Origin: Bdellovibrionales bacterium
Lineage (GTDB): Bacteria > Bdellovibrionota > UBA1018 > CAIMNF01
Assembly: GCA_040380025.1 (NCBI GenBank)
Contig: JBEIJY010000018.1
Location: forward strand, 1-42,875
Length of the DNA stretch: 42,875 nucleotides
Reading direction: 5' to 3'
A program made the translations under genes and the position numbers. The notes under the pieces were generated by a model. It did no database searches and was not told the DNA's origin. It saw only the letters and a program-made list of their open reading frames with translations. Shown here piece by piece: positions 4,816 through 42,875 of the stretch. The stretch's first letter is position 1; each line of letters begins with the position of its first letter.

Positions 4816-6246
4816 ATGTTTCTCGACAGTCTTGCCCAGGCGTATCCGATTCTGATTCTGCTCGGGGTGGTGTGGCTAGTGTTGTCCCGTCTTCCCCAGG
4901 TTCAGCTCGGGCATTCCGAGGACTTCAAGCGGCGCAGGCTTCTGAACTGGCTTCCTTTGGGGCTTACCTACGCGTTTCTTTACATGGGTCGCTACAACCT
5001 GACGGTGAGCAAAAAGTCCTTCGGGGACCTGATGCAAAACTCCGATTTCGGGACGATTTTCTTCTTCGGGACCATCACGTACGGATGCGCCTTCGTGATC
5101 AACGGACCGCTCACCGACCGGATCGGGGGAAGACGCGCGATTCTGGTGGCGGCGCTCGGTTCGGCCGTCGCGAACTTCCTTATGGGTCTCGTGACGTATC
5201 TGGGAATGACCGATCACCTCGTGGTCACGTTCTCGATCCTGTACTCGATCAACATGTACTTCCAGAGCTTCGGTGCCGTGGCGATCGTGAAGGTGAACTC
5301 CTCGTGGTTCCATGTTCGGGAGCGCGGCACGTTCGGCGGAGTGTTCGGAATCCTGATCGCGCTCGGTCTGTATTTTGCTTACGACTGGGGCTCGATCATC
5401 GCGCGCACCTTCTCGCTCCCGTGGGTGTTTTTCGTGCCGACCGTCATGCTGATCGGGTTTTTCATCGTCTCATTCGGGTTAGTCCGCGACCATCCCTCCG
5501 AGGCGGGGTTCCAGGATTTTGATCCGGGAGACGCCAAGATCGGCGAAGGCGCGCGAATGACCGCATTCCAGGTTGCGGCGATCATGATGCGGAATCCTGC
5601 GATCGTTACGATCGCCCTGATTGAGTTCTGTTCCGGATTCCTCCGGAACGCGATCATGCAATGGTACAAGGTGTTTTCCGATCAAACCGGAATTGCGGGC
5701 ACATTTGTTCCCAAGAACTGGGGGCTTTTGCTCTGTTGCGCCGGGATCATGGGAAGCGTGTTCGCCGGAACCCTCTCGGACCGCTTTTTCGGCTCCCGCA
5801 GGGGGCCGGTCTCGGCCGTTTTGTATTTTATGATGCTGGTGGGCGGAATCGTCGCGAATTTTCTGCTTGGCTCGGATTACCTGGGCTTCCTCATGATTTT
5901 TATGTCGATGGCGATCATCGGGGTTCACGGAATGCTCTCGGGCACGGCCAGCATGGATTTCGGCGGCAAAAAGAACGTCGGAACGGCAGTGGGGCTCATC
6001 GATGGTATGGTGTACCTCGGAACCGGCGCCCAGTCGCTCTACTACGGTTGGGCGCTCCCGAATGGCGATGCCGCGCGGGATTTCTCGAACTGGCATGCCT
6101 GGCCCGTGGCCATGGGCCCGGTGGCCCTCATCGGCTTTTTGCTTGCCCTCCGTCTTTGGAACGCGCACCCTTCGGCGCCCAAAAAAGAACGCGCTGAAAC
6201 CAAGATCCCGGTCACCCTGACGGCCGAACAGTCGTCGGCGGAGTAG
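4816..6246 (+). CDS. MFS transporter, GlpT/UhpT-like organophosphate family
   Basis: YMGRYNL, GPLTDRIGGR, WFHVRERG, GTLSDRFF, GTAVGLID; about 12 TM segments; GGAGG RBS before ATG at 4816. Confidence 0.85.
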   Translation: MFLDSLAQAYPILILLGVVWLVLSRLPQVQLGHSEDFKRRRLLNWLPLGLTYAFLYMGRYNLTVSKKSFGDLMQNSDFGTIFFFGTITYGCAFVINGPLTDRIGGRRAILVAALGSAVANFLMGLVTYLGMTDHLVVTFSILYSINMYFQSFGAVAIVKVNSSWFHVRERGTFGGVFGILIALGLYFAYDWGSIIARTFSLPWVFFVPTVMLIGFFIVSFGLVRDHPSEAGFQDFDPGDAKIGEGARMTAFQVAAIMMRNPAIVTIALIEFCSGFLRNAIMQWYKVFSDQTGIAGTFVPKNWGLLLCCAGIMGSVFAGTLSDRFFGSRRGPVSAVLYFMMLVGGIVANFLLGSDYLGFLMIFMSMAIIGVHGMLSGTASMDFGGKKNVGTAVGLIDGMVYLGTGAQSLYYGWALPNGDAARDFSNWHAWPVAMGPVALIGFLLALRLWNAHPSAPKKERAETKIPVTLTAEQSSAE

Positions 6247-6249
6247 ACC

Positions 6250-7488
6250 ATGGATTGGACATCCGATCAGACGCGCGCACTGAAAATCCTCGCCGGCGAG
6301 AACAACGTGTTTCTCACCGGAGGAGCCGGAACGGGCAAATCCACGGTTATTTCTGAGTTCATTGGCAATCAGGAATCCGTGGCCGTGCTGGCCTCGACCG
6401 GAACCGCAGCGATCCTTCTTCGGGGCAGGACCTTTCATTCCTTCTTCGGTCTCGGCATCATGGAGGGCGGGAACGAAGCGGTGATCGAACGCGCCGTCAA
6501 GCATCGCGGCATCGTCCAACGCCTTCGGCGCACGAAGACCGTGCTGATCGACGAGATTTCCATGATCGGTGCGAACGAGCTTCTTTGCGCCGAGAAGATC
6601 GCCCGGAAGGCGCGAGCCGTGTCCGCTCCTTGGGGCGGTCTGCGAGTCGTCGTCATCGGTGACTTCGCACAACTCCCTCCCGTAGTGCGCTCCGTGCCCG
6701 GGCAGGTGTCGAGCGAGCGGCCCTGGTGTTTCACCGCCGAGGCCTGGCGCGATACCCTGTTCGATGCCGTGGTGCTAAGAGAAATCGTACGATCCCGCGA
6801 CTCCGATTGGAACCGCGTTCTCGGCGAACTCCGGTGGGGCGAGATCGGAGAAGAGTCGTTTCGGGTACTGAATGAGCGGGTCAGTCCTGTTCCCCTGAAG
6901 TTCCAAGGGACCCGGCTTTTTGCGCGAAGAGCCCAAGTCGACTCCTTGAATCAGGAACGATTGAAGACTCTTCCCGGGGGCGCGCGGGAATATCCCACGG
7001 TTTACGCGGGCAAAGCCCAGCGGCTCGATGAGCTTCGACGGAACGCGCCGGTCCCCGAGGTTCTCCACCTCAAAATCGGCGCCTTGGTGATGTTCCGGCA
7101 GAATGATCCCGACTATCGCTTCGTGAACGGAACCCTCGGCACGGTCGTGAAGCTCAAGGACGACGAGGTCCATGTCGAGCTCCTGACCGGAAAAACCATC
7201 GAGCTGAAGCCCGCGACCTTCAGTCTTCTCGATGCCGATGGCGAGACCCTCGCATCGGCCACGAACTTTCCTTTGAATCTTGCGTGGGCCTGCACCATCC
7301 ACAAGGCGCAAGGTGCGACTCTCGATCGCGTGCATGCCGATCTCAGGGGTGTCTGGGAGCACGGGCAGACCTACGTGGCGCTGTCTCGCGTCCGCTCGGT
7401 TTCCGACCTCACCCTCGAGGGGCTTTCCCGGAACAGCTTCCGCATCGATCCCGCGGTCACCGGGTTTTATCGCTCGCTTCGCGGCTGA
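6250..7488 (+). CDS. PIF1/RecD-like SF1B DNA helicase
   Basis: TGGAGTGKS, IDEISM, GDFAQLPPV, NGTLG, AWACTIHKAQGATLD, YVALSR. Confidence 0.92.
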   Translation: MDWTSDQTRALKILAGENNVFLTGGAGTGKSTVISEFIGNQESVAVLASTGTAAILLRGRTFHSFFGLGIMEGGNEAVIERAVKHRGIVQRLRRTKTVLIDEISMIGANELLCAEKIARKARAVSAPWGGLRVVVIGDFAQLPPVVRSVPGQVSSERPWCFTAEAWRDTLFDAVVLREIVRSRDSDWNRVLGELRWGEIGEESFRVLNERVSPVPLKFQGTRLFARRAQVDSLNQERLKTLPGGAREYPTVYAGKAQRLDELRRNAPVPEVLHLKIGALVMFRQNDPDYRFVNGTLGTVVKLKDDEVHVELLTGKTIELKPATFSLLDADGETLASATNFPLNLAWACTIHKAQGATLDRVHADLRGVWEHGQTYVALSRVRSVSDLTLEGLSRNSFRIDPAVTGFYRSLRG

Positions 7489-7784
7489 GGGGGCGATTTA
7501 GCGATCTCATACAGCCGGTCGAAATGATACATGCCGGTGCGGTGTCCGTCGCTCCATTCGACATGGATTCCGTACCGTCCGACCGGTTCGACTTTCAGGG
7601 GTTTGACATCCGGTTTGATGCTTTCTTTCTTCAGGGTGCGTACGCCGGTCATCTCATCAACGCAGGTGGCGCACGGGCAGTAAAAACGAAGATCAATGCA
7701 GGGGAGGGTGAATTCCTCCCCGGTGTCAAAACCGAGCAGAAGGTTGAAACCCGGGGCTGGCGCCACTTTGGTGAGGTTCGGCAT
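7467..7784 (-). CDS. DUF971 / GBBH-N-like metal-binding protein
   Basis: LRFYCPCATC, VGRYGI, WSDGHRTGMY. Confidence 0.85.
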   Translation of the reverse strand: MPNLTKVAPAPGFNLLLGFDTGEEFTLPCIDLRFYCPCATCVDEMTGVRTLKKESIKPDVKPLKVEPVGRYGIHVEWSDGHRTGMYHFDRLYEIAKSPPQPRSER

Positions 7785-7847
7785 GTCGAAAACGTAGCAC
7801 AAATTCGATTTCAAAAAATCAAAAGTTCTCCTACGCTGAAGAGTGCC

Positions 7848-8780
7848 ATGGAGCGAATTCCATCAAAAAGTCTGAGTCAGCTTCTGGATCCGATCAACCG
7901 CCTGTACCGGCACCGTCTGGCCAAGCGGATCGCGCATTTTCTTCGCAAAACGCCGATCACCGCCAACCATGTCACGATCGCCCACACTTTGGTCGGGGTG
8001 CTTGCCGCGTTCCTGATTTACAAAAGCCAGTATCTTCTTGCGATTTTGTTCTTCGAGGTGAGAACCGTGCTCGATGCCGTCGACGGAATCCTTGCTCGCC
8101 TGAAAAACCAGGCGAGCCCTTTCGGGCGGACGCTCGATACCATTGGTGACGGAATCACATTCAATTCATTGATGCTGGCGGGGGCTCTTCGGATGATCGG
8201 GGATTTTCCGAGCTATCGTCCCTCGCTTATTCTGATTGCGGTCTTTTTGTTCGCGCTCACCGCCGCCCACTGCGGAAGTGTCTACCAGCTCATGAAACGC
8301 AAGCTCGGCTCGATCATCATGGAGCAGGTCGATTCCGTGGAGCGCGAGTGGCGTGAACAAGGCGAGAAAATCCGGAATGATCCGGGCGCTTGGATCGCGC
8401 GATTCGGATTCTGGATGGATACGCTGACGATCCGGTTTGTTTCCGAGGAATGGTACGAAAAAATCGCCCGCCGGCGCACCGCCGGGGACTGGGAGGCAAG
8501 GGCGCTGCAGGACGCCTCCACCATGAATGAGCTTGCGCGGCGGACCCGGAGGAGGGAATTCCGGAATGCCGTCCGGTATACGGCGTTCGTGAGCGATGAT
8601 AATATTTTCGCGGTGATGAGCCTTTGCTTTCTCGGGCTCGAAGCCTTCCCGAACGGGATTTTCCCGTATGTGCACCCCGTCCTGATCGCGTTTTCGGCCG
8701 GTTTTCTGTACGCATTGGGCGCCCTCGTGCTCGGGCTCCATCATTTGCATGGTTTTTATCACGGCGTTTATCGGGATTGA
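7848..8780 (+). CDS. CDP-alcohol phosphatidyltransferase family protein
   Basis: TANHVT and LDAVDGILARLKNQASPFGRTLDTIGD signature; start inferred at MERIPS. Confidence 0.87.
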   Translation: MERIPSKSLSQLLDPINRLYRHRLAKRIAHFLRKTPITANHVTIAHTLVGVLAAFLIYKSQYLLAILFFEVRTVLDAVDGILARLKNQASPFGRTLDTIGDGITFNSLMLAGALRMIGDFPSYRPSLILIAVFLFALTAAHCGSVYQLMKRKLGSIIMEQVDSVEREWREQGEKIRNDPGAWIARFGFWMDTLTIRFVSEEWYEKIARRRTAGDWEARALQDASTMNELARRTRRREFRNAVRYTAFVSDDNIFAVMSLCFLGLEAFPNGIFPYVHPVLIAFSAGFLYALGALVLGLHHLHGFYHGVYRD

Positions 8781-11421: not shown

Positions 11422-11673
11422 ATGAAAGAAAATATCCATCCTGTTTATCGTGACGTTGTGTTCAAGGATCTCCAGAGCGGGTTCGAGTTCCTGACTCGTT
11501 CCACCGTTCAGACCAAAGAGACCATCAAGTGGTCCGATGGCAAAGAGTATCCTTTGGCCAAGGTCGAGATCTCCTCGAAGTCCCATCCGTTCTACACCGG
11601 TCAAGATCGCCGCGTAGATACCACCGGACGCGTCGAGAAGTTCATGAACAAGTACAAGAACCTCAAGAAATAA
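11422..11673 (+). CDS. rpmE2: 50S ribosomal protein L31, type B (Cys-free)
   Basis: [27 protein letters not shown]; no cysteines. Confidence 0.95.
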
Positions 11674-11717
11674 GGTTTCCTCCAATGGTAAAACGCCGCG
11701 CAAGCGGCGGTTTGCCT

Positions 11718-11758
11718 GGGCCTTCCTCCTTTAGCCGGGAGGGAGGCCCTTTTTTTTT
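11718..11758 (+). terminator. Rho-independent terminator after rpmG-L31
   Basis: gggccttcctcc-tttagccg-ggagggaggccc stem followed by a T9 tract; a second hairpin (cgccgc gcaa gcggcg) lies just upstream at ~11694-11709. Confidence 0.85.
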
Positions 11759-12693
11759 CAGAGAAACATCTTCATCCAAAGAAGATTGCGGTCGAAGATC
11801 AGAGTGTTCGCCTTGGATGCAAGTCGCGGTTTTCCGCAAAACGAAACCGAAGTTCCCGCTTCTTCCATCATCAGGATGTCATTCGCGCCATCTCCGGCGA
11901 CGATCACCTCGTCCCGGGAAAGCCCGAGACGGTTCTTCAGCTCCGAAACAATCTCGCGCTTCCTTGCCGCATCCACGATCCGTCCCTCGAGTTCTCCCGT
12001 CAGGAGCCCGTTCGCGTCGGCGGCGAGGGCATTGCCGAAGACATGATCCAATCCCAGCGTTTTTTTGAAATGCTCGAGAATGACCTCGAATCCCCCGCTG
12101 ATCACGGCCGTTCTGATTCCCTGCGATCGGAGACTGGAAAGCAATTCTTTGCCTCCCGGACTGACCGTGAGCGAGGAAATCACCTCTGTGACCCGTTCCT
12201 GTTCGAGTCCCCGGAACAGCGCGACCCGCGCCCTCAGGCTTTGCTCGAAGTCGAGTTTTCCTTGCATGGACTGCTCCGTGATCGCCGAGACTTCCTCGTA
12301 AAATCCGGCTTTGCGCGCGATTTCGTCGATCACCTCCTGGTCGATCAGCGTGCTGTCCATGTCAAAGCAGACGAGTTTTTTCGGGGTTTCCAAGGTCTTT
12401 CGAGAAAGGCAGGCCACGGCAAAGGGGCGAGGCACCGGAAGGGCGCCCGAGAGAACCTCCCGCCAGACCGTGTCTTTGATGAGTTCTGGTGAGAGCCCCG
12501 GTGCGGGTTCCGGAAGATCGAATCGAAGATGCAGGGAATCCCTTGGCTCGTGCAGCAGCGCGGACGTTGCCGAATTGGCAGGAAAGGAAAAGCCCGCATT
12601 GCGGAGCGCGCGTTCCAGGTGCGAAGAAAGGGCGTCGAGCGCCTCACGGTCAAGAACCGGACTGATCCAGATCAGCTGGTGGGAAGAGCGCAT
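11758..12693 (-). CDS. serB: Phosphoserine phosphatase (HAD family)
   Basis: FDMDSTLI, SLRARVAL, ISGGF, GDGANDILM. Confidence 0.92.
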   Translation of the reverse strand: MRSSHQLIWISPVLDREALDALSSHLERALRNAGFSFPANSATSALLHEPRDSLHLRFDLPEPAPGLSPELIKDTVWREVLSGALPVPRPFAVACLSRKTLETPKKLVCFDMDSTLIDQEVIDEIARKAGFYEEVSAITEQSMQGKLDFEQSLRARVALFRGLEQERVTEVISSLTVSPGGKELLSSLRSQGIRTAVISGGFEVILEHFKKTLGLDHVFGNALAADANGLLTGELEGRIVDAARKREIVSELKNRLGLSRDEVIVAGDGANDILMMEEAGTSVSFCGKPRLASKANTLIFDRNLLWMKMFL

Positions 12694-18828: not shown

Positions 18829-19059
18829 ATGTTGAAAAAACCGAACACCAGAAAAATTCCGAATGCAATCCGGGCGAATGGCTATGAGCGCGGCTTTTGG
18901 TTGCTGATGGGGGCGTCTTTTTTGACGATCGCCTTTTTGGTGGTGATGGAGACCAGTCGAGCCCGCCCTTCCGGGCTTCAGTTCATGAAAAAGGTCGAGA
19001 TCGAGCGGATCTCCCTCGAAGAGGCCCATCGGGTCGATGTAAATAAACGAAATAATTGA
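18829..19059 (+). CDS. Small hypothetical single-TM protein
   Basis: AGGAG upstream, one hydrophobic helix, fills an intergenic gap. Confidence 0.5.
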   Translation: MLKKPNTRKIPNAIRANGYERGFWLLMGASFLTIAFLVVMETSRARPSGLQFMKKVEIERISLEEAHRVDVNKRNN

Positions 19060-19179
19060 TTTTTTCGCAAGTCCTGCCCGCGAGCGCGGATCGACTCAAT
19101 TTTTCGGCATCTTTTTCCGATCAGGATAGTACACTAATAAGCAGGGGATCTGCTTTTGGTGAGTCGGGAGGGGAAGTCA

Positions 19180-19971
19180 ATGCGGAACAGGGTGGGGGGA
19201 GTTCAGGCCGTCTGGGAGTTCTGCCGACGGATCCTCGACTGTGGTCCTGCCGTTTTTTTTCTCTTCGCCCTAACCGCATGCGGAAAAAAAGGCAGCGAGG
19301 TCATCAAGGAGTGCGTCCTTGCGGAGGATCAGTCCGCTACCCTGATCGGGAAATGGTCTGCAAATCCGGTTCCGGTTGCGGTGATCGCGAATGATTTCTC
19401 CTCAAACGAGCTTCAGGCGATTCGTGCCGCCATCGGAACCTGGAATTCGTTTTTCACCGCTTCGAAAGGGTTTCAGATTTATCTTTCAGAGGGTTCGTCC
19501 CTGGGAACAGTCCGGGCCGAAACCCCGCGGATCTCGACGAGTGCGGTTTGCTCCCACACCATGGTGGCCGCAAACGGATTCACCCGGCCCATTGTCATCC
19601 AGAAATCCCGGTCCTGGAGTTATGGCAAATCAGTCATCGCACTCACGGGAACCTGTCCCGTGGCGGTGAAGGGGGCTTCGCAACGGGTGTTCACCTCTGC
19701 GGTGATGGAGATCAACTTCGTTCATTTTTTTGCGACCGGAAAGCCGGTTCCGGATCTCGAGAGCGTGATCGCCCACGAGCTCGGGCACTTGCTCGGTTTG
19801 GATCACTCCTGTGCATCCAAGGCGAAGACCGGCTTTGCTTCGTGCCAGGGAGCGGGGGTCGATTACATCGAGGCGCTCATGTTCCCGAGCCTCGGCTTCG
19901 ACGGCAGCCGGGGGCGGATCCGGCGCGAACTCGGAACAAACGATCAACGACGGGCAAATTGCCTTTACTGA
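19180..19971 (+). CDS. Matrixin-like (metzincin) zinc metalloprotease lipoprotein
   Basis: HELGHLLGLDH zinc motif, ALMFP Met-turn, LTAC lipobox. Confidence 0.85.
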   Translation: MRNRVGGVQAVWEFCRRILDCGPAVFFLFALTACGKKGSEVIKECVLAEDQSATLIGKWSANPVPVAVIANDFSSNELQAIRAAIGTWNSFFTASKGFQIYLSEGSSLGTVRAETPRISTSAVCSHTMVAANGFTRPIVIQKSRSWSYGKSVIALTGTCPVAVKGASQRVFTSAVMEINFVHFFATGKPVPDLESVIAHELGHLLGLDHSCASKAKTGFASCQGAGVDYIEALMFPSLGFDGSRGRIRRELGTNDQRRANCLY

Positions 19972-33805: not shown

Positions 33806-34759
33806 ATGAACATATTCGTCGGGGTGGCGCGGATCGCGCTGATGGTTTCGTTTTTTTCGCTTTCGTCCGCTCGTGCGGACAACCTGATTTCAGAACAGCA
33901 ACAAGAAGAGGCAGTCCTGCGCCTGGAAGAGGCACTCGGCGACGAGGCGTCGCTCTCGCGGATCGCCGGAGCGATCGATGCGATCGAAGAAACGGCGACC
34001 TCAGAAGAAAAGATCGTCTTGCAATCGATGCGGGAAGTGGTCCGGGAGTTCCGGAGCGGGATGGTTCCTCCGGGAAAAACCAAAAGGAAGCCGAAAGCGG
34101 GCGAGTTTTTTGCCAAACTCGGGATCGGCATCCACCGGTTGACCGCAAAAATGGTGGCGCCTTTTTACCGGGCCACCGGGTATCTGACCGGCCGGTACGA
34201 AAAAAACAACGAGTATGACGGAGAAGACTCCGATCGCCCCACGAATTATCTTGCCCGGCTCGCATATCAGTTCCGCTTGATGGAGAACAACGCGGTTGCG
34301 GCCTTGCTCGAGCGACTGCAAGAGGGGGAGCATCTGACCGCTCCGGAGGTCAATCTCATCATCGCGGCGATTCCCCGTCTCGGCATGCGCGAATGGGAAC
34401 CGATCGCGGGGGTCGCGGGGTTCCATGTGAGCTCGGTTGCGGTCACGGCGGTCGTATCGAATGTGCTGGGATTCGCGGGGCTTGCGGGGCTTCCTTGGAT
34501 GGTGTTCCATGGGTATTTCATCGGGGTGTTCGCGGCGACGGTTCCGTGCGGGTTCCCGAGAGCGCAAGAGAAGCATCCCGCGCTCCAGAAATACTGCGAG
34601 GACATCATGGCGGCATACGAGATGACCATCTTCCCCGCCCGGATCAAGGGGTATGTCAAAGGGGTGAATGCCCGCAATCGTGCCCGTGAGCGCGCCCGCG
34701 AACGTGCTCGCGAAGAACGGGAAAAACGCGAGCAGCGACAGGCGATCCGTCAGGAATAG
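33806..34759 (+). CDS. Hypothetical exported protein with hydrophobic hairpin and charged tail
   Basis: GGAGG RBS, signal peptide ending SARA, Gly/Ala-rich hydrophobic stretch, RARE-repeat tail. Confidence 0.7.
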   Translation: MNIFVGVARIALMVSFFSLSSARADNLISEQQQEEAVLRLEEALGDEASLSRIAGAIDAIEETATSEEKIVLQSMREVVREFRSGMVPPGKTKRKPKAGEFFAKLGIGIHRLTAKMVAPFYRATGYLTGRYEKNNEYDGEDSDRPTNYLARLAYQFRLMENNAVAALLERLQEGEHLTAPEVNLIIAAIPRLGMREWEPIAGVAGFHVSSVAVTAVVSNVLGFAGLAGLPWMVFHGYFIGVFAATVPCGFPRAQEKHPALQKYCEDIMAAYEMTIFPARIKGYVKGVNARNRARERARERAREEREKREQRQAIRQE

Positions 34760-34803
34760 TTTTGGGTTGATTCGGAGGCTTGCCGGACGCTAAGCTCCGG
34801 AAT

Positions 34804-36078
34804 ATGCTTGATCTCCGTACCATCCGCGAAAATTCCGAATCCGTCCGGACTGCGATCCGCAACAAGCGCGTGGCGCTCGATCTTGACGAGCTTTTGTCCC
34901 TCGATCGCGAGGTTCTGGAGCTGAAGAAAAAACTCCAGGCACTTCAGGAAGAGAAGAATTCGAACGCAAAGAAAATGCCGAAGGCATCTCCCGAAGAACG
35001 ACCGGGACTGATCGAACGCGGGCGCGCGATCGGACAGGAAATCAATTTGCTCGAGCCGGTTCTCGGGCAGAAAGAAGAGGGGCTGAAGAACCTGCTTTGG
35101 CTCACCCCCATGATTCCGGCGGCCGATGTTCCCGTCGGCCCCGATGATTCCGGCAACGTCGAGCGAAAGACCGGGGGGACGATCCCGGATTTCGGGTTCT
35201 CCGCCAAGGATCATGTCGAGCTCGCGCTTCAAAACCAATGGGCCGAGTTCGAGCGGATGGCTCGTGTTTCGGGATCGCGGATGATCGCCCTGAAGAACGA
35301 GCTCGCGCTCTATGAGTTCGCGGTGATCCGGTTCGCGCTCGATCTCCTCGCCAAAAAAGGGTCCCAGATCATCACCGTCCCCGCGATGGTGCGCGAGGCG
35401 GCTCTTTTCGGAACCGGGCATTTTCCGACCGGTCGCGAGCAGGTGTATTTTCTGAAAGAAGATGATTTGTATCTCTCGGGCACGGCCGAGGTCCCCGTGA
35501 CTTCGATCTTCAGCGGCGAAATCCTCGCCGAGAGCGAAATCCCGAAGCGTATCGGGGCATTCTCCCCGTGTTTCCGTCGCGAGGCGGGGAGTGCCGGCAA
35601 GGATGTCCGCGGCCTCATGCGCGTGCATCAGTTCAACAAGGTCGAGCAGTTCGTGTTTTGCCGGAACGACCCCGAGGAGTCCGAGCACTGGCACCGGGAG
35701 CTTCTTGCCACCTCCGAAGAGATCGTGCAGGCACTTGAACTTCCGTATCGGGTGATCGAGGTATGCACCGGCGACATGGGTGCCGGAAAATACCGGATGC
35801 ACGATCTGGAATGCTGGGTCCCCTCCGAAAAGCGCTACCGGGAGACGCATTCCTGCTCGAGTCTTCACGACTGGCAGGCGCGGCGGGCGAACCTCCGCTA
35901 TCGGGGGCGGGATGATCAGGTCCGTTTCATTCATACTCTGAACAACACGGCCGTCGCGACACCGCGGATCTTGATTCCGCTCATCGAGAATCACCAGCTT
36001 CCGAACGGCGCGGTCCGGATCCCGAAGGCCCTCCAGCCGTACATGGGCGGGCTCGACCGCATCGGCGGGAGTGCGTAA
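34804..36078 (+). CDS. serS: Seryl-tRNA synthetase
   Basis: MLDL start, GTAEVP, CFRREAG, GLMRVHQFNKVEQ, ETHSCS, HTLNNT. Confidence 0.97.
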   Translation: MLDLRTIRENSESVRTAIRNKRVALDLDELLSLDREVLELKKKLQALQEEKNSNAKKMPKASPEERPGLIERGRAIGQEINLLEPVLGQKEEGLKNLLWLTPMIPAADVPVGPDDSGNVERKTGGTIPDFGFSAKDHVELALQNQWAEFERMARVSGSRMIALKNELALYEFAVIRFALDLLAKKGSQIITVPAMVREAALFGTGHFPTGREQVYFLKEDDLYLSGTAEVPVTSIFSGEILAESEIPKRIGAFSPCFRREAGSAGKDVRGLMRVHQFNKVEQFVFCRNDPEESEHWHRELLATSEEIVQALELPYRVIEVCTGDMGAGKYRMHDLECWVPSEKRYRETHSCSSLHDWQARRANLRYRGRDDQVRFIHTLNNTAVATPRILIPLIENHQLPNGAVRIPKALQPYMGGLDRIGGSA

Positions 36079-36081
36079 CCG

Positions 36082-36771
36082 GTGGATTTTTTCGATGTCG
36101 TCCGGGCTCGGCGAAGCGTCCGAAAGTACACGTCCACGCCGGTTCCCGAATCGGTGATCCGGCAGGCCCTGGATGCGGCCTTGCTTGCCCCGAACTCCTC
36201 GAACATGCAAACCTGGGGGTTCTACTGGGTCCGCTCCCCCGAAAAAAAGCAAAAACTGGTCAAGGCCTGCCTCTCCCAGGGCGCCGCTCGCACTGCGGCC
36301 GAGTTGGTCGTGATCACGGCCGAGACCAAGCGCTGGAAGGAAAATCGGCGCGAGATGATCCGGGTTTTCCGGGAGGCAAAGGCGCCTTCCTTTGCGATCG
36401 ATTATTATCAAAAACTCATTCCGGTTTTTTACGGGTTTTCTTTTCTTGCTCCGCTGAAGTGGCTCATTTTCAACTGCGTCGGCTTGTTCCGTCCGATGAT
36501 GCGCCATCCTTGGAAGCCGGGCGATGTCGAAGTGGTGTCGATCAAGTCCGCGGCGCTCGCCGCCGAGAACTTCATGCTCGCCGTCTCCGCGCAGGGCTTC
36601 GGATCCTGTCCGATGGAGGGCTTCGATGAATCGCGCGTCCGGCGGATTCTCGGACTTTCCTGTTCCGATCGCGTTGTGATGGTGATCTCCGTGGGGGAGC
36701 CCGATTCCGAACGCGGGATCTGGGGGCCACAAGTCCGCTTCGCGAAGGATCGCTTTGTCCGCGAGATTTGA
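36082..36771 (+). CDS. Nitroreductase family protein
   Basis: RRSVRKY, APNSSNMQTW, SCPMEGFD. Confidence 0.92.
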   Translation: MDFFDVVRARRSVRKYTSTPVPESVIRQALDAALLAPNSSNMQTWGFYWVRSPEKKQKLVKACLSQGAARTAAELVVITAETKRWKENRREMIRVFREAKAPSFAIDYYQKLIPVFYGFSFLAPLKWLIFNCVGLFRPMMRHPWKPGDVEVVSIKSAALAAENFMLAVSAQGFGSCPMEGFDESRVRRILGLSCSDRVVMVISVGEPDSERGIWGPQVRFAKDRFVREI

Positions 36772-36858
36772 ATTTTCGCCGGTTTGATTCCCGTCAAGTA
36801 CCTGACTCTTGCAAGACTTCTCCTTCTCTCAAAAAATGGGAGGAGGGGAGGGGTGACC

Positions 36859-37080
36859 ATGACAGAGAACAGTCCGATCACAGGAGTGATCGATGAGTCG
36901 AATGTGATCATTGATTTCGGGAAATATGAGGGACGCACGGTAAAGGAGCTCGCGTATCTGGATCCGGTCCTCTACGCGGCCCTTGCGAGCGAAAAGAACG
37001 ACGGCTCCGTTTCGATCCGTCGCCATCGCGACAAAACTTTCCGGCTCTACCTGAATCCGCTTGCGCAGTTGGATCACTGA
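36859..37080 (+). CDS. Small protein with FGKY motif (DUF3820/ExoX-C-terminal-like)
   Basis: IDFGKYEGRTVKEL...DP; G/A-rich RBS upstream. Confidence 0.65.
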   Translation: MTENSPITGVIDESNVIIDFGKYEGRTVKELAYLDPVLYAALASEKNDGSVSIRRHRDKTFRLYLNPLAQLDH

Positions 37081-37097
37081 CCGATAAATTCCGGATC

Positions 37098-38195
37098 ATG
37101 TTGGACTCCTTCTTGCGCCACGTGACCCGGGACTCCTACGGTCCTGTTTCATTTCCGGATGCTTCTCCTTTTCCCGCCGTCGTTCATCGGTTCCAGGATT
37201 CGTACTCTCTTTTTGGTTGGACGAAGATGCCGGATCTGATCGCGGATCGGGGGCGGATCGATGCGGGGATCTTCACCTTCCTGAATCTCCGGTATCGATC
37301 ACCCGAAACCTGGAAAGCGTTTTTCCGTTCGCCGGATGCCCTCGCGTTCCGCAAGGCGGGCGCGGCGGCCGCTTCTGCCGGGAGCGTGAGCTCGGCATTG
37401 AATGAAGTCTCGGAGCGCCTTCCGATTCGCTCGAACTTCATCGGAGTGCTCGACGAGCGCAGTTTTCGCGATCTGGAAGCGTCCGTTCCGGTTTCTTCTT
37501 CCCTGCTTCTTTCCGAAGAGACCCTTCAAGCGGTTCGGATCGCTCTTCCGCCGGTTTTCCCGGTATGCGAATTCTTCGCCGAAGAAAAAGCCCCTGCCGG
37601 TCTCGTGCTGGGGCGGACGGTCCGAGATCATTCTGTTTGGCGGAATCAGGCCTTCCCGAAGCTTCTTCCGTTCGAGTTCTTGTGCCGGTTCGACGGGGAT
37701 TTTCCCGAGGTGGCGGTCATGCTTTCGCAGGACCCGCTCAAAACCGAGATCAGTGCCGCACAAGCGCTTTGGATCACAGGAATGCCGGCATCGGAATTCC
37801 AGGATCTTCTGCTCTCTGCCGCTTGGATCGCGGCCTGGACGAGGCATACTGTCCGTTCGGCTGCTTTGGATCTTGGCTGGGTTCGCCTTCGGTTCGCGCT
37901 CCTTCCGGGAGGGGCTCCGGTCCTCGTGGACGCATTCGCTCTCGAGGATCTCGGATTCCAGCGGCAAGGAGTGTCGATCCCGTTCGCGCCCGCGATCGAG
38001 TTCCTGCAAGGCTCCGCCTGGCATGAGGCTGTTTCGCGTGCGAAAGAACAGTCATTGCGCCAAGGTGCTCCGGACTGGAGGCGTTTGTGCACGGTGCCGG
38101 CTCCGGCGCTCGATTTCGCGGTGAAAGCCCGGGTCGAAGAAGACCTGCAAGGAATCGCCCGAAGCCTGTTGGGAAGCGAGAATCATGTTTTGTAG
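37098..38195 (+). CDS. Degenerate SAICAR synthetase (PurC)-like protein, catalytic motifs missing
   Basis: FQDSYSLFGWTKMPDLIADRG resembles the DRYSVFDWGxMPD.I..KG segment of long PurC; LLPFEFLCRF, LVD and W..A..RAK....G..DWR..C follow the same order. Confidence 0.7.
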   Translation: MLDSFLRHVTRDSYGPVSFPDASPFPAVVHRFQDSYSLFGWTKMPDLIADRGRIDAGIFTFLNLRYRSPETWKAFFRSPDALAFRKAGAAAASAGSVSSALNEVSERLPIRSNFIGVLDERSFRDLEASVPVSSSLLLSEETLQAVRIALPPVFPVCEFFAEEKAPAGLVLGRTVRDHSVWRNQAFPKLLPFEFLCRFDGDFPEVAVMLSQDPLKTEISAAQALWITGMPASEFQDLLLSAAWIAAWTRHTVRSAALDLGWVRLRFALLPGGAPVLVDAFALEDLGFQRQGVSIPFAPAIEFLQGSAWHEAVSRAKEQSLRQGAPDWRRLCTVPAPALDFAVKARVEEDLQGIARSLLGSENHVL

Positions 38196-40584
38196 GATCG
38201 AGTCCGGATACAAGGCAGGGTTTTCTGATCCCGAGGCGGCACGCATTCACCGGAAGATCGCCGAGATCCATCCCAGTCTTGCGGAGCGGATCCGGTGGAT
38301 CCGGAAGCTTCGGATCGCGTGGATGGAGTTCGATGCTTCCCGCGACAAGGTGGTACAGGGCATCCAGGAGGTTTTCAAGAATCCGGTCACGGATTGGGTC
38401 TTCACGGGCGACCTGCTTCCTTCCGCCGCCGGGAGCAACGGCACGCTGTACGATCTGATGCAGGAATCTCCGTTCCGTCCGGGGGTTTTTCACGGCATCG
38501 AAAAACGAAAGCGCCTCATGGTTCATGACGAGGATTCGCTCGTGCTCCGGGACGCGATGCAGACCGTGCTCGGGCGGAAATCCCAGGGCGATCGCGTGGT
38601 GAGCGGGGAGTTGCTTTTGCTCGAGGGTGCGAAGCTCGTGCAGTCGGATCTCGAGTGGATCGCGCGGAACTGGTTCGCGCACGAGCAATTCGAGTCGTGG
38701 TCCCTGCTCTCCGAAGAGGAACTGAAACGGAATTCCCGCTTCCAGTCCGAACAGGTTGCAAAATACCTTGCTTTGCCCGGACAGTCGGTCCGTTCGGGAC
38801 TTCTCCAGTTCCGGGCCCCCGGCAGGGCGCGCGATCTTCCGATCCAATGGTCCAGGGTGTCCGAGCTTCTCCGTTCCAAAATCATCTCGCCCTCCATTCC
38901 AGCGCCCTTGAGCGTCGGTGATGACTGGGGCTTCCTCGCCGACATCCGTTTTTCGTCGAGCCGGCTGCAGATCGAATCCTTGAGTGAGACCGAGTTCCAG
39001 CTTTGTCGCCACCAGCTCGATCACTTCGCCCTGCAAGGAAACATGCGATTCCAATCGGTCCTCGGAGTCCTGCCCGAGAAGAACCGCCTCTGGAGGAGCG
39101 AGATCGAGGGTGAGTCCCCGCTCAAGGTCCGCGATGATTTCGAGAACTCCATCGAGCGGGTGGCCTCTTCCACCAACACTCCGATCGCGGTGATGAAAAT
39201 CCTCGAGGAGACGCACGAGGCCGTTCCCGCTTATTTTTTCACCGGGAATATCAGCATCCACGACAAGGATTTGAAGACCCTGAAGGCCCGCGACCGCGGT
39301 GCCCTCTCCGATCTCTTTTTTGTCGGATACGGCGATCAAGGTGTGATCCGGAACCTGAGTTTTCTGGGCACCTTGCAATCCACCTATCGCCACGGACTGA
39401 AGGGGGAGGCGATTGATTTCTCGATCCATGGTTCCGGCCGGAGCCTCCTTCAGTGTTTCAAGGGGGCGCATGAGGAGTTCCAGTACGGGTTCGACCTCGT
39501 GATCGACGGAATCGAGGATTGGTTCAAGAAGAACTTCGAATCCGCCATTTCACTCGGATTCATCTGGGGAGTGAATCCCGAAAAGCGCCAGTGGCTCTGC
39601 CGGGTTCTCGAGAGCCGGGGCATCCCTTACATCCATTTCGGAACGACCTCGCTCACCGGAGACGTGCGGATCCTCGAGGGCGGGGCGGTCCGGTCTTCTG
39701 TGACCATCCGCGAGTTTTTCCGGCCATCCGATGAATCCCCGGCGTCGAGGCTGTATGAAGAGCCGTTGTATCCGAAAGAAACGCGCAATCAGCCGGCGCA
39801 TTTTCGGAACCGGTTTTGCACCGAGGATCTGGCACTGAAGCCAGAGGACTTTCATACGAACGTCGCATCCCCCGTGGTGCTCCGGCCTTCGCTTGAGCAC
39901 TGGTCCGGGCTCATGGTGCTCGGCGATCTGATCGATCAGTCCTTCAACTCCCAGGTGCTGGATTATCTCATGCGCAGGTGCACGGCCATGGGTGGACAGA
40001 TCCACTGCGTGCAAGCGTCGTATCTGAACGGACTCAAATCCTGGTCCAATACGCTTCTCCAGCTCGAACGCGATTTCGGGATCGCAGTGACCGAAGTGGA
40101 ATTCATCCATCAGCCCGAGATCCGGGCGCATTGGCTTGCTCTCCAGATCATCGCACGCGTCGCGGATGTCCGGATGGTGCGCACCGAGGAGTTCAAGTTC
40201 GCGAACGACCGGATTTATTGGTTGCCCGGCGATTTCGCCCAGCCCGGCACTCGGTGGCTTGCCGGGTTCGAGGGGCGGTACCAGACCTCCCTGCACAGTG
40301 CGGTCGCGATCGAATCGGATGGCGAGGATCTGCAAAAGGTCACGGATGCTCTCTGTTTTGCTCTCAAAAAAAGGAAGCTCGGTGCCGAGGTCCGGATCCA
40401 GCATCGCTTCGGCGGCGGGTTTTTTGTCAGCGTCGGCGAGAACGAGCGTTTTGCCGTCGAAGAGGAGTGGCGGACACTCGGGGTCCGGCATGAGTTCGTG
40501 GGGCGGGTCACGGCTTCGCCCTATCTGGTCATCCGGAACGAGGCGGATCAGCTCGAAACCATCTCGATCGAGGACATCCTATGA
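38185..40584 (+). CDS. Degenerate FGAM synthase PurL-like protein with N-terminal PurS-like repeats
   Basis: RIESGYKAGFSDP...VFKNPV N-terminus; PurM-like remnants VLRP, RCTAMGG, DVRMVRTEEFK..NDRIY, FVSV...VGRVT; sits between purC- and purQ-like genes. Confidence 0.65.
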   Translation: MFCRIESGYKAGFSDPEAARIHRKIAEIHPSLAERIRWIRKLRIAWMEFDASRDKVVQGIQEVFKNPVTDWVFTGDLLPSAAGSNGTLYDLMQESPFRPGVFHGIEKRKRLMVHDEDSLVLRDAMQTVLGRKSQGDRVVSGELLLLEGAKLVQSDLEWIARNWFAHEQFESWSLLSEEELKRNSRFQSEQVAKYLALPGQSVRSGLLQFRAPGRARDLPIQWSRVSELLRSKIISPSIPAPLSVGDDWGFLADIRFSSSRLQIESLSETEFQLCRHQLDHFALQGNMRFQSVLGVLPEKNRLWRSEIEGESPLKVRDDFENSIERVASSTNTPIAVMKILEETHEAVPAYFFTGNISIHDKDLKTLKARDRGALSDLFFVGYGDQGVIRNLSFLGTLQSTYRHGLKGEAIDFSIHGSGRSLLQCFKGAHEEFQYGFDLVIDGIEDWFKKNFESAISLGFIWGVNPEKRQWLCRVLESRGIPYIHFGTTSLTGDVRILEGGAVRSSVTIREFFRPSDESPASRLYEEPLYPKETRNQPAHFRNRFCTEDLALKPEDFHTNVASPVVLRPSLEHWSGLMVLGDLIDQSFNSQVLDYLMRRCTAMGGQIHCVQASYLNGLKSWSNTLLQLERDFGIAVTEVEFIHQPEIRAHWLALQIIARVADVRMVRTEEFKFANDRIYWLPGDFAQPGTRWLAGFEGRYQTSLHSAVAIESDGEDLQKVTDALCFALKKRKLGAEVRIQHRFGGGFFVSVGENERFAVEEEWRTLGVRHEFVGRVTASPYLVIRNEADQLETISIEDIL

Positions 40585-41318
40585 GCAAATACCGCGCACT
40601 CATCCTCTCCGCCCCGGGAAATCGGGGAGAACGGCATTTCGAGCATGCGCTCCGGAGTGTCGGATTCGACGCCGAGATCCTCTCGGTGCCTGAGGTGGTC
40701 GATTACGGAATCGATCTCGATCAGCTTTGCCTGAAGTACAAACTGCTGATCATCCCCGGCGGGAATTCCTATTCTTCGGTCCTGGGCGGAGGAAAAGTCC
40801 TCGCACTCAAGATGCGGCACTTGTTTCGCTGGAATTTGCAACGATTCGCCGAGCGGGGCGGTCTCGTGCTCGGGGTCGGGACCGGATTCGAGGCGCTCCT
40901 GCACATGAACGTGTTCGGGGACGACTACACCCTCCGTTCGAACGGTTCCTTTGAGACCACGGTGAAATGGATCAAGGCGGTTCCGACCGGAAGTCGTTGC
41001 ATCTGGTTGAAGGGGCTCGGAACCATCGAACTCCCCATGAATCTTCTCGACACCGAATTCGTGATCGAGCCCGGGTCGGTGGTCGAGGCGACAGGAAGGC
41101 TCGAGCGGCTGGGCCTTGCGTGTCTTCGTTCGGCCGAGAACGACGGGATCCTCGGTCTTTGCGATCTGACCGGAAGAATCCTCGGGATGATGCCGAATCC
41201 CGAGTTCTTCTTGAGCTGGACGAATGCCGAGGACTGGTTCCTGAATCCGACCCGTGCGGCGGCGCCCGGGCAGGGCTACGCGATTTTCGAGAACGCCGCC
41301 CGTTATTGCGAGCAGTGA
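40581..41318 (+). CDS. PurQ-like class I glutamine amidotransferase homolog lacking catalytic Cys and His
   Basis: IPGGNSY, GKVLALK, VLGVGTGFEAL (canonical LGICNGFQ), GLCDLTGRILGMMPNPE (canonical MPHPE), IFENA. Confidence 0.88.
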   Translation: MSKYRALILSAPGNRGERHFEHALRSVGFDAEILSVPEVVDYGIDLDQLCLKYKLLIIPGGNSYSSVLGGGKVLALKMRHLFRWNLQRFAERGGLVLGVGTGFEALLHMNVFGDDYTLRSNGSFETTVKWIKAVPTGSRCIWLKGLGTIELPMNLLDTEFVIEPGSVVEATGRLERLGLACLRSAENDGILGLCDLTGRILGMMPNPEFFLSWTNAEDWFLNPTRAAAPGQGYAIFENAARYCEQ

Positions 41319-41325
41319 TTTTGTC

Positions 41326-42624
41326 TCACAAAGCCCAGTAGGCCTCGTCGAGGCTTTCTTCTTTTTCGGGGAGTCCGCGGAAGAGTCTCGGTGAGTTGCG
41401 GGAGAGGATCTCGAAACTCACTCGATTCGAGTATTTGCAGATCTGTGCGATCGAAGAATAGGTCAGATAGCGTGCATGATGTTTCGGCGAGTTCGGAATC
41501 TTGCTCCGGTGGTACCGGTTCGCCGCCATGTCATGCAGGAGCGCCGCAAGAGCGCCGTCTCCCGCGCCATTCGTGTTCTTGATCTCGACCGGTCCGCCCA
41601 TGAACGGGTTGATGTGCGAAAAAATCCGGATCGGGGTTTCGCAGTCCGACCGTCGCATCCCCCGGGAATACTCGAACTGGTTGTAGTTCACGATCGATTT
41701 CGTGTGGAGCTCGTGTTCCGTGTGCCGCGCGAACGCGCGATCCACATGGCCGCCCACATACAGTCCGTTCGAACCGACCGTGAGAAGCGCCAGATCCGTG
41801 ATCGAGAGCGCCTCGTTGATCGCAAGCAGCGGATCCTCGACTCCGGTCAGGGCCTTCGCCTCTTCCTGGTTCATCGCGAGGACGTTCACGTGACTCCCGA
41901 TGAAATCACGGAAGAACGGCACTTTCGAGGCGATGAGTGCGCTTGTCCCCAGGGTAAGAATGATGGGAACCCCGGATTTTTTTGCGATCTCGCAGGCGCG
42001 GACCGTGGATTCGAAAATCGGGGAGCGTTCGTCGCGGAGGGTGTAGGCCGAGACGAGAAGCGCGCAAGAACGCTCGATCAGGCGGGCGGGCAGGAATGCC
42101 GGTTGAAGGTCATCCATGCACCCTTTCGAGATCCCGAACGTGCGCTCGCCATCCGGGGTGATCAGGCAGATGGCGCGCCCCATGGGCCGTTCGCAGGGTT
42201 GCAGGTGATTCAAGTCGACCTTGGAAGAGGTGGAGGCGATGTACTTGAACGCATAATCGCCCACGGTGATCTGGCGCGAGATCGCGCCCAGAAGAACGGC
42301 GCGTTCTTCTGAGAGGACCGAGAAATTGTGAAGAGTGTTGCCCACCGATCCCCCGGCGTACTCGCCCGTGATCCGGCCCTCTTTTTTTGCGAGCGAGTAG
42401 ATGCGATCGCAGTGCTCGTGCTCGATGATCTGGGACTGGCCTTTCTTGAGTCCATGCGCTTCGAGGAACGAATCTTCGACATGGCACTCGATGTCGACCA
42501 AGAGTTGGTCGATTCCGACAATGTGGTAGCTCTCGTCGGTCGAGTAATTGTGATCCGCGCTCACGCGATCCTTCTCGGTCACGGGGAAGTAGTGCTTGGA
42601 TTTTCGGCGTCCCGGAAATTTCAT
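41326..42624 (-). CDS. gsk: Inosine/guanosine kinase
   Basis: MKFPGRRKSKHYFPV N-terminus, GIDQLLVDIE, NTNGAGDGALAALLHD, SPRLFRGLPEKEESL. Confidence 0.95.
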   Translation of the reverse strand: MKFPGRRKSKHYFPVTEKDRVSADHNYSTDESYHIVGIDQLLVDIECHVEDSFLEAHGLKKGQSQIIEHEHCDRIYSLAKKEGRITGEYAGGSVGNTLHNFSVLSEERAVLLGAISRQITVGDYAFKYIASTSSKVDLNHLQPCERPMGRAICLITPDGERTFGISKGCMDDLQPAFLPARLIERSCALLVSAYTLRDERSPIFESTVRACEIAKKSGVPIILTLGTSALIASKVPFFRDFIGSHVNVLAMNQEEAKALTGVEDPLLAINEALSITDLALLTVGSNGLYVGGHVDRAFARHTEHELHTKSIVNYNQFEYSRGMRRSDCETPIRIFSHINPFMGGPVEIKNTNGAGDGALAALLHDMAANRYHRSKIPNSPKHHARYLTYSSIAQICKYSNRVSFEILSRNSPRLFRGLPEKEESLDEAYWAL

Positions 42625-42727
42625 GCTTCGGCCTCGCTGGATTTGACACCCGTTATAGGTCAATCAGGGGTGGATTTCAACGAAAAACAGATCGAATCAA
42701 TCGGGATTAAGGCGACCCGAACATCCC

Positions 42728-42875
42728 CAAACTGCCCCCTTTGAGTGTGCTTTCGCAGGGAGCGAGATCGGCCGGGGGGGGTGGGATGTTTAGGTTTTTT
42801 AGGACGCGCGCGCGCCCGGGGCGCGCGGAAGCCAGGCGGCCCCCCCCCGCGCGGCGGGGGAAACCGCAAAAATAC
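42728..42875. repeat. Left arm of the palindromic repeat, degrading into low-complexity sequence at the window end
   Basis: caaactgccccctttgagtgtgctttcgcagggagcgagatcggcc...gggatgtttaggttttt aligns with 3789-3860. Confidence 0.85.

Follow-up and report, generated by a model that had tools for sequence, protein, structure and literature searches.

We describe here three consecutive genes of an uncultured Bdellovibrionales bacterium of predatory type, located on contig JBEIJY010000018.1 of assembly GCA_040380025.1. The window, by which we mean the whole stretch of 42,875 nucleotides that was analysed, lies on a single contig of a metagenome-assembled genome (MAG), and the three genes occupy positions 37098–41318 on its forward strand. 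They descend from purC, from a purS-purL fusion (purSL) and from purQ of a de novo purine operon, the active-site motifs of all three have been replaced, and they are kept in an organism that is without the rest of the pathway. We consider it probable that this trio is under selection, is no longer a purine enzyme and works as a complex. All genomes compared below are MAGs as well, and the calls of absence hinge on their completeness. The trio consists of the following features, in which SAICAR is phosphoribosylaminoimidazole-succinocarboxamide, FGAR formylglycinamide ribonucleotide, FGAM formylglycinamidine ribonucleotide and ORF an open reading frame.

37098–38195, + strand: ORF1, diverged PurC; SAICAR-synthetase fold, nucleotide/Mg and substrate motifs replaced
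38185–38769, + strand: ORF2 residues 1–195, double PurS-like N-terminal domain; the best conserved part
38770–40584, + strand: ORF2 residues 196–799, PurL (FGAM-synthetase) fold; ATP/FGAR motifs deleted or replaced
40581–41318, + strand: ORF3, diverged PurQ; class-I glutamine amidotransferase fold, nucleophile Cys and, in the window copy, His absent

A first-pass annotation, made from the sequence letters, had described three intact and tightly coupled ORFs, and its coordinates, lengths and junctions all proved to be right. The ORFs (ORF2 at 38185–40584) encode 365, 799 and 245 amino acids without internal stops; ORF2 starts with the ATG at 38185 and overlaps by 11 nt with ORF1, the stop codon of which ends at 38195, and ORF2 and ORF3 have the ATGA at 40581–40584 in common.

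Homology and Active-Site Changes of the Three Proteins

The relationship to Pur proteins that the first-pass annotation had claimed for all three products is borne out, by Pfam for ORF3, by profile-profile and fold comparison for ORF2, and by a weak NCBIfam match together with the fold for ORF1; sequence alone barely detects it for ORF1 and ORF2. ORF3 matches GATase_5 (PF13507) at 5e-25, with 88.5 bits against a cut-off of 27, aligns to the Thermotoga maritima PurQ 3d54_D at 4e-12, and is 43% identical to the canonical PurQ of a related MAG, locus L020. The best score with the NCBIfam PurQ equivalog models is 52.2 bits, short of the cut-off of 298. In the nucleophile elbow G[IV]CNGFQ has become GVGTGFE, and all 13 family members have Gly or Ala at the Cys position; in ORF3, PHPE has become PNPE, with His changed to Asn and Glu retained. 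No new invariant Cys was found in the ORF3 family beyond those common to canonical PurQ.

Pfam recognizes no family in ORF2, and AIRS, AIRS_C and the FGAR-AT linker, all three of which are found in the canonical relative L020, are not detectable. A profile of 37 ORF2 family sequences, run against the PDB sequences, returned no PurL and chance matches only (E 0.1–1.7), so that homology had to be established by comparing profiles with profiles and folds with folds. Profile-profile alignment with canonical PurSL covers the whole length of ORF2 (E 2e-68, 771 columns). Residues 1–195, with a weak PurS match and a column conservation of 0.74–0.83, are 46% identical to the N-domain of the 1060-aa PurS-PurL fusion of L020, which carries PurS, FGAR-AT linker, AIRS and AIRS_C. 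The AlphaFold2 model of ORF2 has a predicted local distance difference test score (pLDDT) of 84.5 and a predicted template modelling score of 0.86, and its top 26 Foldseek matches in the PDB are all FGAM synthetase/PurL. The best are 4lgy (8e-28; template modelling score normalized by query, TMq, 0.64), 1vk3 (normalized by target, TMt, 0.65) and 3viu (TMt 0.59), at 10–12% identity. An ESM Atlas search with residues 196–799, in which the nearest named clusters carry AIRS/AIRS_C at 0.87–0.89, had been a lead only and is superseded by the fold search.

The PurL core of ORF2 has been rewritten to a large extent. The protein is about 250 aa shorter than canonical PurSL, and among 327 canonical columns past residue 195 that are conserved at ≥90% (in ten PurSL of canonical length, one of them the diverged copy of genome G087), 112 fall on gaps and 5 are retained. 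A second alignment, with 248 invariant core columns defined on eight type-A and one type-B canonical PurL, gave 30 columns retained and 218 changed; the N-domain keeps 13 of its 20 invariant columns. The PurL segments VETHNSPSALDPYGGA, NRD, GKDGIHGATFSS, DNGAGGLSSS, SESQERM and SGKDSMKN (in short form ETHN.., NRD, GKDGIHG.., DNGAGG.., SESQERM and SGKDSMKN) are deleted or replaced, and these are segments that we take, from PurM-superfamily structures, to line the nucleotide and substrate sites.

For ORF1, and likewise for its homologues, Pfam gives no family, the SAICAR-synthetase model PF01259 included. The NCBIfam PurC match is weak (7.8e-8; NF010566 at 31.8 bits against a cut-off of 546), and a family profile that includes one canonical PurC matches 1kut at 1e-7. 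The AlphaFold2 model (pLDDT 88.3) has SAICAR synthetase in all of its top 37 Foldseek matches in the PDB, the best at 7e-10. The D..S...W..MPD segment of PurC is retained. GSVK has changed to HVTR and KxE (K-L-E-W/F) to R-L-R, and SKEFLR is lost, PFAPAIEF standing in place of SKExxR; in the diverged PurC family, all 14 members have Arg or Lys where KxE has its Glu. The residues of the GSVK loop, KxE(F/W) and SKExxR are presumably catalytic in PurC. Residue comparison with canonical PurC, PurL and PurQ thus agrees with the first-pass claim that active-site motifs are replaced in all three proteins.

An insert of about 80 aa in PurC was considered as a marker of the trio lineages and dropped, as it also occurs in five canonical type-A PurCs and in one fused to purD. 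The PurC of L020 (2783–3877, + strand) is without this insert, which six other type-A PurCs carry, although the operon is otherwise type-A; it groups with type-B PurC (99/99) and may represent a gene replacement inside the operon.

Absence of De Novo Purine Synthesis

The genome to which the window belongs has 2.35 Mb and is 98% complete and 1% contaminated. Its Pfam search showed no SAICAR_synt, AICARFT/IMPCHase, GARS_A or AIRC (purC, purH, purD, purE), and its only GATase_5 is ORF3. A tblastn search of the genome with all proteins of one type-A and one type-B operon found no purF, purD, purN, purH or purM and matched only the trio, the weakly similar N-terminus of a class-II amidotransferase (probably glmS) and a weak formyltransferase. 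A separate canonical set of purC, purL and purQ, which the first-pass annotation had proposed to look for in related genomes, was not found in this 98%-complete genome, nor was any other de novo step. Genes for purA and IMP dehydrogenase (guaB) are present, and gsk, for inosine/guanosine kinase, lies adjacent to the trio. The organism is without de novo purine synthesis and lives on salvage (gsk, purA, guaB). The sole AIRS-domain gene of the genome lies on another contig (G000:C16:39626-39949, − strand, locus L003; 364-aa frame); PurM queries do not match it, so that a ThiL-, SelD- or HypE-like protein is more probable than PurM.

Selection on the Retained Genes

Ratios of nonsynonymous to synonymous substitution rates (dN/dS) were calculated by the method of Nei and Gojobori for pairs of related loci with unsaturated dS only, dS being saturated for most pairs:

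Loci L009–L010: ORF1 0.088, ORF2 0.021, ORF3 0.022, gsk 0.030 (no value for serS)
Loci L009–L011: ORF1 0.095, ORF2 0.022, ORF3 0.020, serS 0.019, gsk 0.020

When ORF2 is split, the N-domain gives 0.007–0.032 and the core 0.015–0.047, so that both are constrained. ORF1 evolves 4–5 times faster than its neighbours. ORF2 identity within the retaining genus goes down to 38%, and there are no internal stops among the orthologue matches listed over 116 genomes. With dN/dS at about 0.02, equal to that of serS, we conclude that the ORF2 core was rewritten once and then held as tightly as a housekeeping gene. The view of the first-pass annotation that selection rather than ordinary decay is at work is upheld by these ratios, far below 1, and by the intact frames.

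Origin, Distribution, and Repeated Reduction

Canonical relatives have the order purF-purC-purD-purN-purSL-purQ-purH-purM, with a divergent 98-aa ORF (orf98) before purF. L020 shows the whole order and six further genomes its upstream part, from orf98 to purQ and in some to purH. In related MAG loci the order serS-(nitroreductase)-orf98-ORF1-ORF2-ORF3-gsk recurs, and because this gene order matches the canonical operon, the trio is an operon remnant in its original place and not a stray paralogue. Among 16 such loci (L004–L019), ORF1 is present in 14, ORF3 in 15 (L007 stops at a contig edge) and gsk in 14. ORF1 is absent from L015 and L016, where orf98 abuts ORF2. As it is both less constrained and missing in these 2 of 16 loci, ORF1 is a dispensable accessory and not a core part.

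The distribution was surveyed in 116 genomes of the order, which are not independent where they are related and several of which are incomplete. The 800-aa form of ORF2 is confined to family f1: it occurs in 16 of 16 genomes of genus g1 and in the window's own genome, in G018 (genus g3) and, more divergent, in G017 (genus g2). PurSL of other families has about 1050 aa and matches ORF2 at the N-domain only. When 1.84 billion representatives were searched with a profile of the ORF2 core, no more than 22 proteins matched. Strong matches number seven and are the ORF2 family itself; the other 15 are weak and fall on the C-terminal part of proteins with lengths of 239–1062 aa, including six of about 1000 aa that are taken as PurSL.

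Presence of purH, in 78 of the 116 genomes, falls to 4 of 16 in g1. These four genomes and G017 have a second, complete operon elsewhere, alongside the dead genes. The second operon of G001 (L033, G001:C10:274500-288500) has an unusual architecture, encoding a 1127-aa PurN-PurL fusion (5089–8472, − strand) in which residues 69–185 match PurN and the remainder aligns with PurSL from about residue 109 on, the first PurS-like repeat being absent.

A similar reduction is seen outside f1. In genus g14 (family f10) purH is found in 0 of 4 genomes and purD in 0 of 3 tested, and the locus consists of orf98, here divergent, and purC-purSL-purQ. The PurQ Cys is Gly or Ala there, and the PurC motifs are intact. 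Genus g15 and G087 (genus g47) have a diverged PurSL followed by a dead PurQ, and their PurSL core is half decayed, with 83–104 of the 248 columns. In a maximum-likelihood tree the g14 PurC stands beside that of a full-operon genome of its own family (97/97), apart from the f1 clade (100/100), and in a quick tree of the N-domain g14 stands beside the same genome (Shimodaira–Hasegawa-like approximate likelihood ratio test 97), again apart from the f1 clade (99). As g14 sits with its own family, the reduction to the same genes and the loss of the Cys have occurred independently at least twice; the backbone of the PurQ tree is unresolved and does not fix the number of Cys losses within f10.

A scan for the canonical PurQ Cys motif matched 75 of the 116 genomes, with 0 control matches. 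The motif tracks purH: cross-tabulated by hand, 71 genomes have both, 34 neither, 7 purH only and 4 the motif only. The motif with Gly or Ala occurs at 16 places, distributed over 15 genomes, against 4 control matches; 13 of these places lie within about 3.5 kb of a PurSL-type gene. Further Gly/Ala motifs lie away from such a gene at G066:C1:182653 and G041:C48:6240, G066 also having a canonical copy; as the control pattern matched four times, these could be chance matches, or else additional dead PurQ paralogues.

Predicted Complex of ORF2 and ORF3

The complex prediction that had been recommended for the trio was run on the ORF2-ORF3 pair, using ORF2 residues 1–758 and ORF3 residues 1–242, trimmed for size, each with its family alignment. 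Three runs gave an interaction prediction score from aligned errors (ipSAE) of 0.90, 0.91 and 0.90, against 0.00 for the best of three controls; in a benchmark, 116 of 157 solved complexes attain the ipSAE mark, as do 2 of 215 mismatched pairs. The models have 144–152 contacts, agree between runs at ≥92% and give the partner a pLDDT of 89–90. The predicted interface involves residues 9–20, 62–69 and 116–130 of the ORF2 N-domain and patches of the core. A PurL/PurQ-like heteromer of ORF2 and ORF3 is therefore predicted, and the pass may partly be memory of the likeness, as structures of PurLQS and of large PurL have been solved.

Neighbouring Genes and Other Features

The features that flank the trio are as follows.

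36784–37080, + strand: orf98, 98-aa ORF with ExoX-like_C motif (Pfam PF20600 at 3.5e-5, below cut-off)
41340–41356, + strand: terminator-like hairpin directly 3' of the ORF3 stop (consensus scan, weak evidence)
41326–42663, − strand: gsk, inosine/guanosine kinase (NCBIfam NF011655 at 8.8e-178), convergent neighbour

A homologue of orf98 adjoins 15 of the 16 related reduced loci, and homologues are also found beside the canonical operons, divergent from purF, and beside the reduced loci of g14 and g15. Thus orf98 accompanies the pur operon at its 5' end as a conserved neighbour, across the order (e.g., L020 at 817–1038, − strand; L035; L037–L039), and only putatively part of the system. Its orientation is divergent in the canonical loci and in those of g14 and g15. 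In f1 it lies on the strand of the trio, where, with 17 nt from its stop to the start of ORF1 in the window, it may be co-transcribed with the trio.

The terminator scan gave 12 sites against 8.5 expected, and a scan of 36000–42875 for sigma-70-like promoters gave 0 sites against 1.6 expected, which is uninformative. A look through sequencing runs gave four of DNA, all of a single study, and none of RNA. The gsk gene belongs to the surroundings and does not share a transcript with the trio. As annotated, its ORF begins with a TTG at 42663 and encodes 445 aa; alignment to the NCBIfam model starts at residue 14 and homologues are 432 aa long, so that translation probably begins about 13 codons further downstream.

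The remaining window is ordinary chromosomal housekeeping (NAD synthase, PFK, MlaE/D, hisS, leuS, queC, cmk, serS). The PADLOC defence models matched no family in the trio and orf98, and on both of these grounds a reading as a defence system or mobile island was dropped. A 660-aa frame on the minus strand (34750–36732) overlaps serS (34780–36078, +) and a nitroreductase gene (36082–36771, +) and, this DNA being GC-rich, is almost certainly a spurious antisense frame. Three ORFs at 11529–12068 and 19056–19669 (+ strand) have a GC content at third codon positions of 0.40–0.47, against 0.6–0.8 in neighbouring genes, and may be non-coding stretches or foreign genes.

Interpretation and Alternatives

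How could three genes of a biosynthetic operon outlive their own pathway? In the model that we propose, the ancestral purF-purC-purD-purN-purSL-purQ-purH-purM operon was pruned by deletion of the genes for the other steps, with purC, purSL and purQ staying behind. The retained genes then lost the residues for SAICAR synthesis, FGAM synthesis and glutamine hydrolysis and were fixed anew under strong purifying selection. The diverged PurSL and PurQ would still assemble the way FGAM synthase does, with contacts made by the PurS-like N-domain and the PurL-fold core, and with the diverged PurC as an optional third member, and their job would be independent of de novo purine synthesis. This binding or sensing module may derive from a moonlighting ("trigger") role that the Bdellovibrionales enzyme had before the pathway was lost, centred on the best conserved part, the N-domain and PurQ. 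Its task might be to signal or buffer some metabolite, or to bind another protein, as part of the cell's purine and nitrogen economy.

The several parts of this model do not have equal standing. Descent, motif loss, the missing pathway, strong constraint, repeated retention and, in some genomes, coexistence with a real operon are established by the comparisons; the ORF2-ORF3 heteromer is a prediction; the lack of catalysis and a role in sensing or binding are inferred. The specific idea of a sensor carries about a third of the weight that we give to the reading as a whole. For a broader generalization, that PurSL-PurQ of Bdellovibrionales, often with PurC, has a second, catalysis-independent function which alone keeps the genes once de novo synthesis is lost or replaced, we see the balance as even. 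Such retention would have taken place at least twice independently (f1 and g14) and probably more often (g15, g24, g37, g47), and the function could be that of a predator-specific regulator or scaffold for prey-derived nucleotides or nitrogen. The first-pass proposal of a selected, non-catalytic trio is supported, with the qualification that its third member, PurC, being less constrained and missing in 2 of 16 loci, is an accessory to the pair of diverged PurSL and PurQ.

Several observations weigh against a non-catalytic complex. "Catalytically dead" is read from lost residues, and such residues can migrate. Invariant Arg, Glu and His are many in the C-terminal third of ORF2, with charged clusters at residues 597–799, and the other 12 of the 13 members of the ORF3 family keep the His-Pro-Glu of PurQ, both of which would suit a new active site. 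Residues of the predicted interface show no higher conservation than the remaining ones (p 0.24 for ORF2, 0.72 for ORF3, 0.10 for the ORF2 core), and the interface is thus without independent support. In g14 the PurSL core retains 234–236 of the 248 columns and looks catalytically intact, which one would not expect of a purely non-catalytic role, unless the pathway was lost only recently there. The diverged PurSL of g15 evolves fast, with 46% amino acid identity within the genus against 74% for its PurQ; for g14 and g15 dS is saturated, and their dN/dS values are rough only.

The main rival is that the proteins are still enzymes for a different reaction, with migrated or new active-site residues, e.g., an ATP-independent amidohydrolase or ligase for a compound that comes from salvage or from prey. 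We hold it to be unlikely, though the retained His-Pro-Glu and the charged clusters of ORF2 both speak for it, a dN/dS of about 0.02 is as low as that of enzymes, and some pseudoenzymes have migrated residues, as a review on pseudoenzymes notes (PMC10211241). It is countered by an ORF3 that in the window is without both Cys and His and whose family has gained no invariant Cys, by the disappearance of both sets of PurL nucleotide-site motifs, and by the dispensability of ORF1. Much less probable is a dead complex that modulates a real FGAM synthase or purine pathway in the manner of the viral protein vGAT, either on a second operon of the cell or on enzymes of the prey. The dead genes do stand beside a complete second operon in 4 of 16 genomes of the genus and in G017, and vGAT pseudoenzymes are described as recruiting active PFAS (PMC7605207). 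In the other 12 genomes of the genus, as in that of the window, there is no canonical pathway to modulate, and inspection of the translated N-termini by eye, with no predictor used, showed no export signal. One option of the first-pass annotation, an inhibitor of a canonical Pur complex, fits poorly, since within the genus purH is limited to 4 of 16 genomes, the same four that carry the second canonical operon.

Ordinary slow decay towards a functionless relic would account for a trio whose pathway is gone, for the fast evolution of ORF1 and its loss in two loci, and for the fast-evolving PurSL of g15. It would hardly leave ORF2 and ORF3 with dN/dS equal to that of serS, frames intact in all matches listed, translational coupling retained, genes kept across a genus in which ORF2 has diverged so far, and the same genes retained independently in g14, and we give it very little credence. 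Least credible of all is that the trio still acts as an ammonia-dependent FGAM synthase and a SAICAR synthetase on imported intermediates. A dead glutaminase domain that leaves an ammonia-using synthetase is known from carbamoyl-phosphate synthetase I, and in g14, where the motifs of PurSL and PurC look intact and only PurQ is dead, the idea has some appeal. In the lineage of the window, the ATP/FGAR and PurC motifs are gone, and the steps before, between and after are absent. A selected, non-enzymatic complex is thus the reading that we prefer for the trio.

A three-gene piece of a core biosynthetic operon that repeatedly outlives its own pathway suggests a hidden moonlighting role of PurL/PurQ, possibly also of PurC, that may exist in the active enzymes as well. 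The graded lineages form a natural series from an enzyme complex to a non-enzyme, from "only PurQ dead" to "everything rewritten": in g14 the glutaminase is dead and the synthetase intact, in g15 and G087 the core is half decayed, and in f1 the core is rewritten and fixed anew by selection. There is also a warning for annotation: were these genes called purL, purQ and purC on the strength of synteny or weak homology, purine synthesis would be wrongly ascribed to these predators.

Comparison with Known Systems

By their sequences, the members of the trio would be classed as pseudoenzymes: the fold is homologous, key residues are absent and purifying selection is acting. A search of full-text literature, supplements aside, returned no FGAM-synthase-derived pseudoenzyme from bacteria, and only gammaherpesvirus cases. 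The first system for comparison is FGAM synthase itself (PurL-PurQ-PurS of T. maritima, 3D54; large PurL of Salmonella, 1T3T), which the trio resembles in the PurS-like N-domain and PurL fold of ORF2, in the PurQ fold of ORF3, and in the retained order and translational coupling of purSL and purQ. The predicted docking of ORF2 and ORF3 uses the N-domain and the core, matching the bridge role that one study assigns to the N-domain of large PurL (PMC7124931). The trio differs from FGAM synthase in the absence of the PurQ Cys (and of the His in the window copy), in the undetectable AIRS and AIRS_C, in the shortened ORF2 with its changed core columns, and in having no purine pathway around it. With SAICAR synthetase, ORF1 shares the fold, D..S...W..MPD and the position in the pur operon, and it differs by having no Pfam match, by its replaced GSVK, KxE and SKExxR, by its faster evolution and by being dispensable in some lineages.

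Bacterial regulators derived from enzymes are known in HisZ and in PurR of Bacillus subtilis, the latter with a phosphoribosyltransferase fold, which belong to nucleotide or amino-acid metabolism and, with catalysis lost, keep the fold of an enzyme for binding a ligand or a partner. The comparison with these is a functional analogy only, and the trio shows no DNA-binding domain or known partner.

The gammaherpesvirus proteins vGAT/ORF75/BNRF1 are derived from FGAM synthase, have no catalytic triad and are retained in a role other than purine synthesis, as the vGAT paper describes (PMC7605207). The trio is likewise derived from FGAM synthase with its catalytic residues gone, and here the likeness is at the level of the fold only. 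When the ORF2 model was compared with BFVD, 13 matches were obtained at E ≤ 0.001, and all the named ones are of the gammaherpesvirus FGARAT type (best 7e-24, TMq 0.60). The identity of ORF2 to vGAT is 11–13%, and the N-domain and synteny tie ORF2 to the purSL of Bdellovibrionales, not to the ORF75/BNRF1 lineage. Whereas vGAT arose from an animal single-chain PFAS captured by a virus and acts on host proteins, the trio has an independent origin, is chromosomal, has split subunits and a dead PurC, and resides in a cell that is mostly without the active enzyme. By analogy of fold and of lost catalytic residues, gammaherpesvirus vGAT is the closest analogue of the trio.

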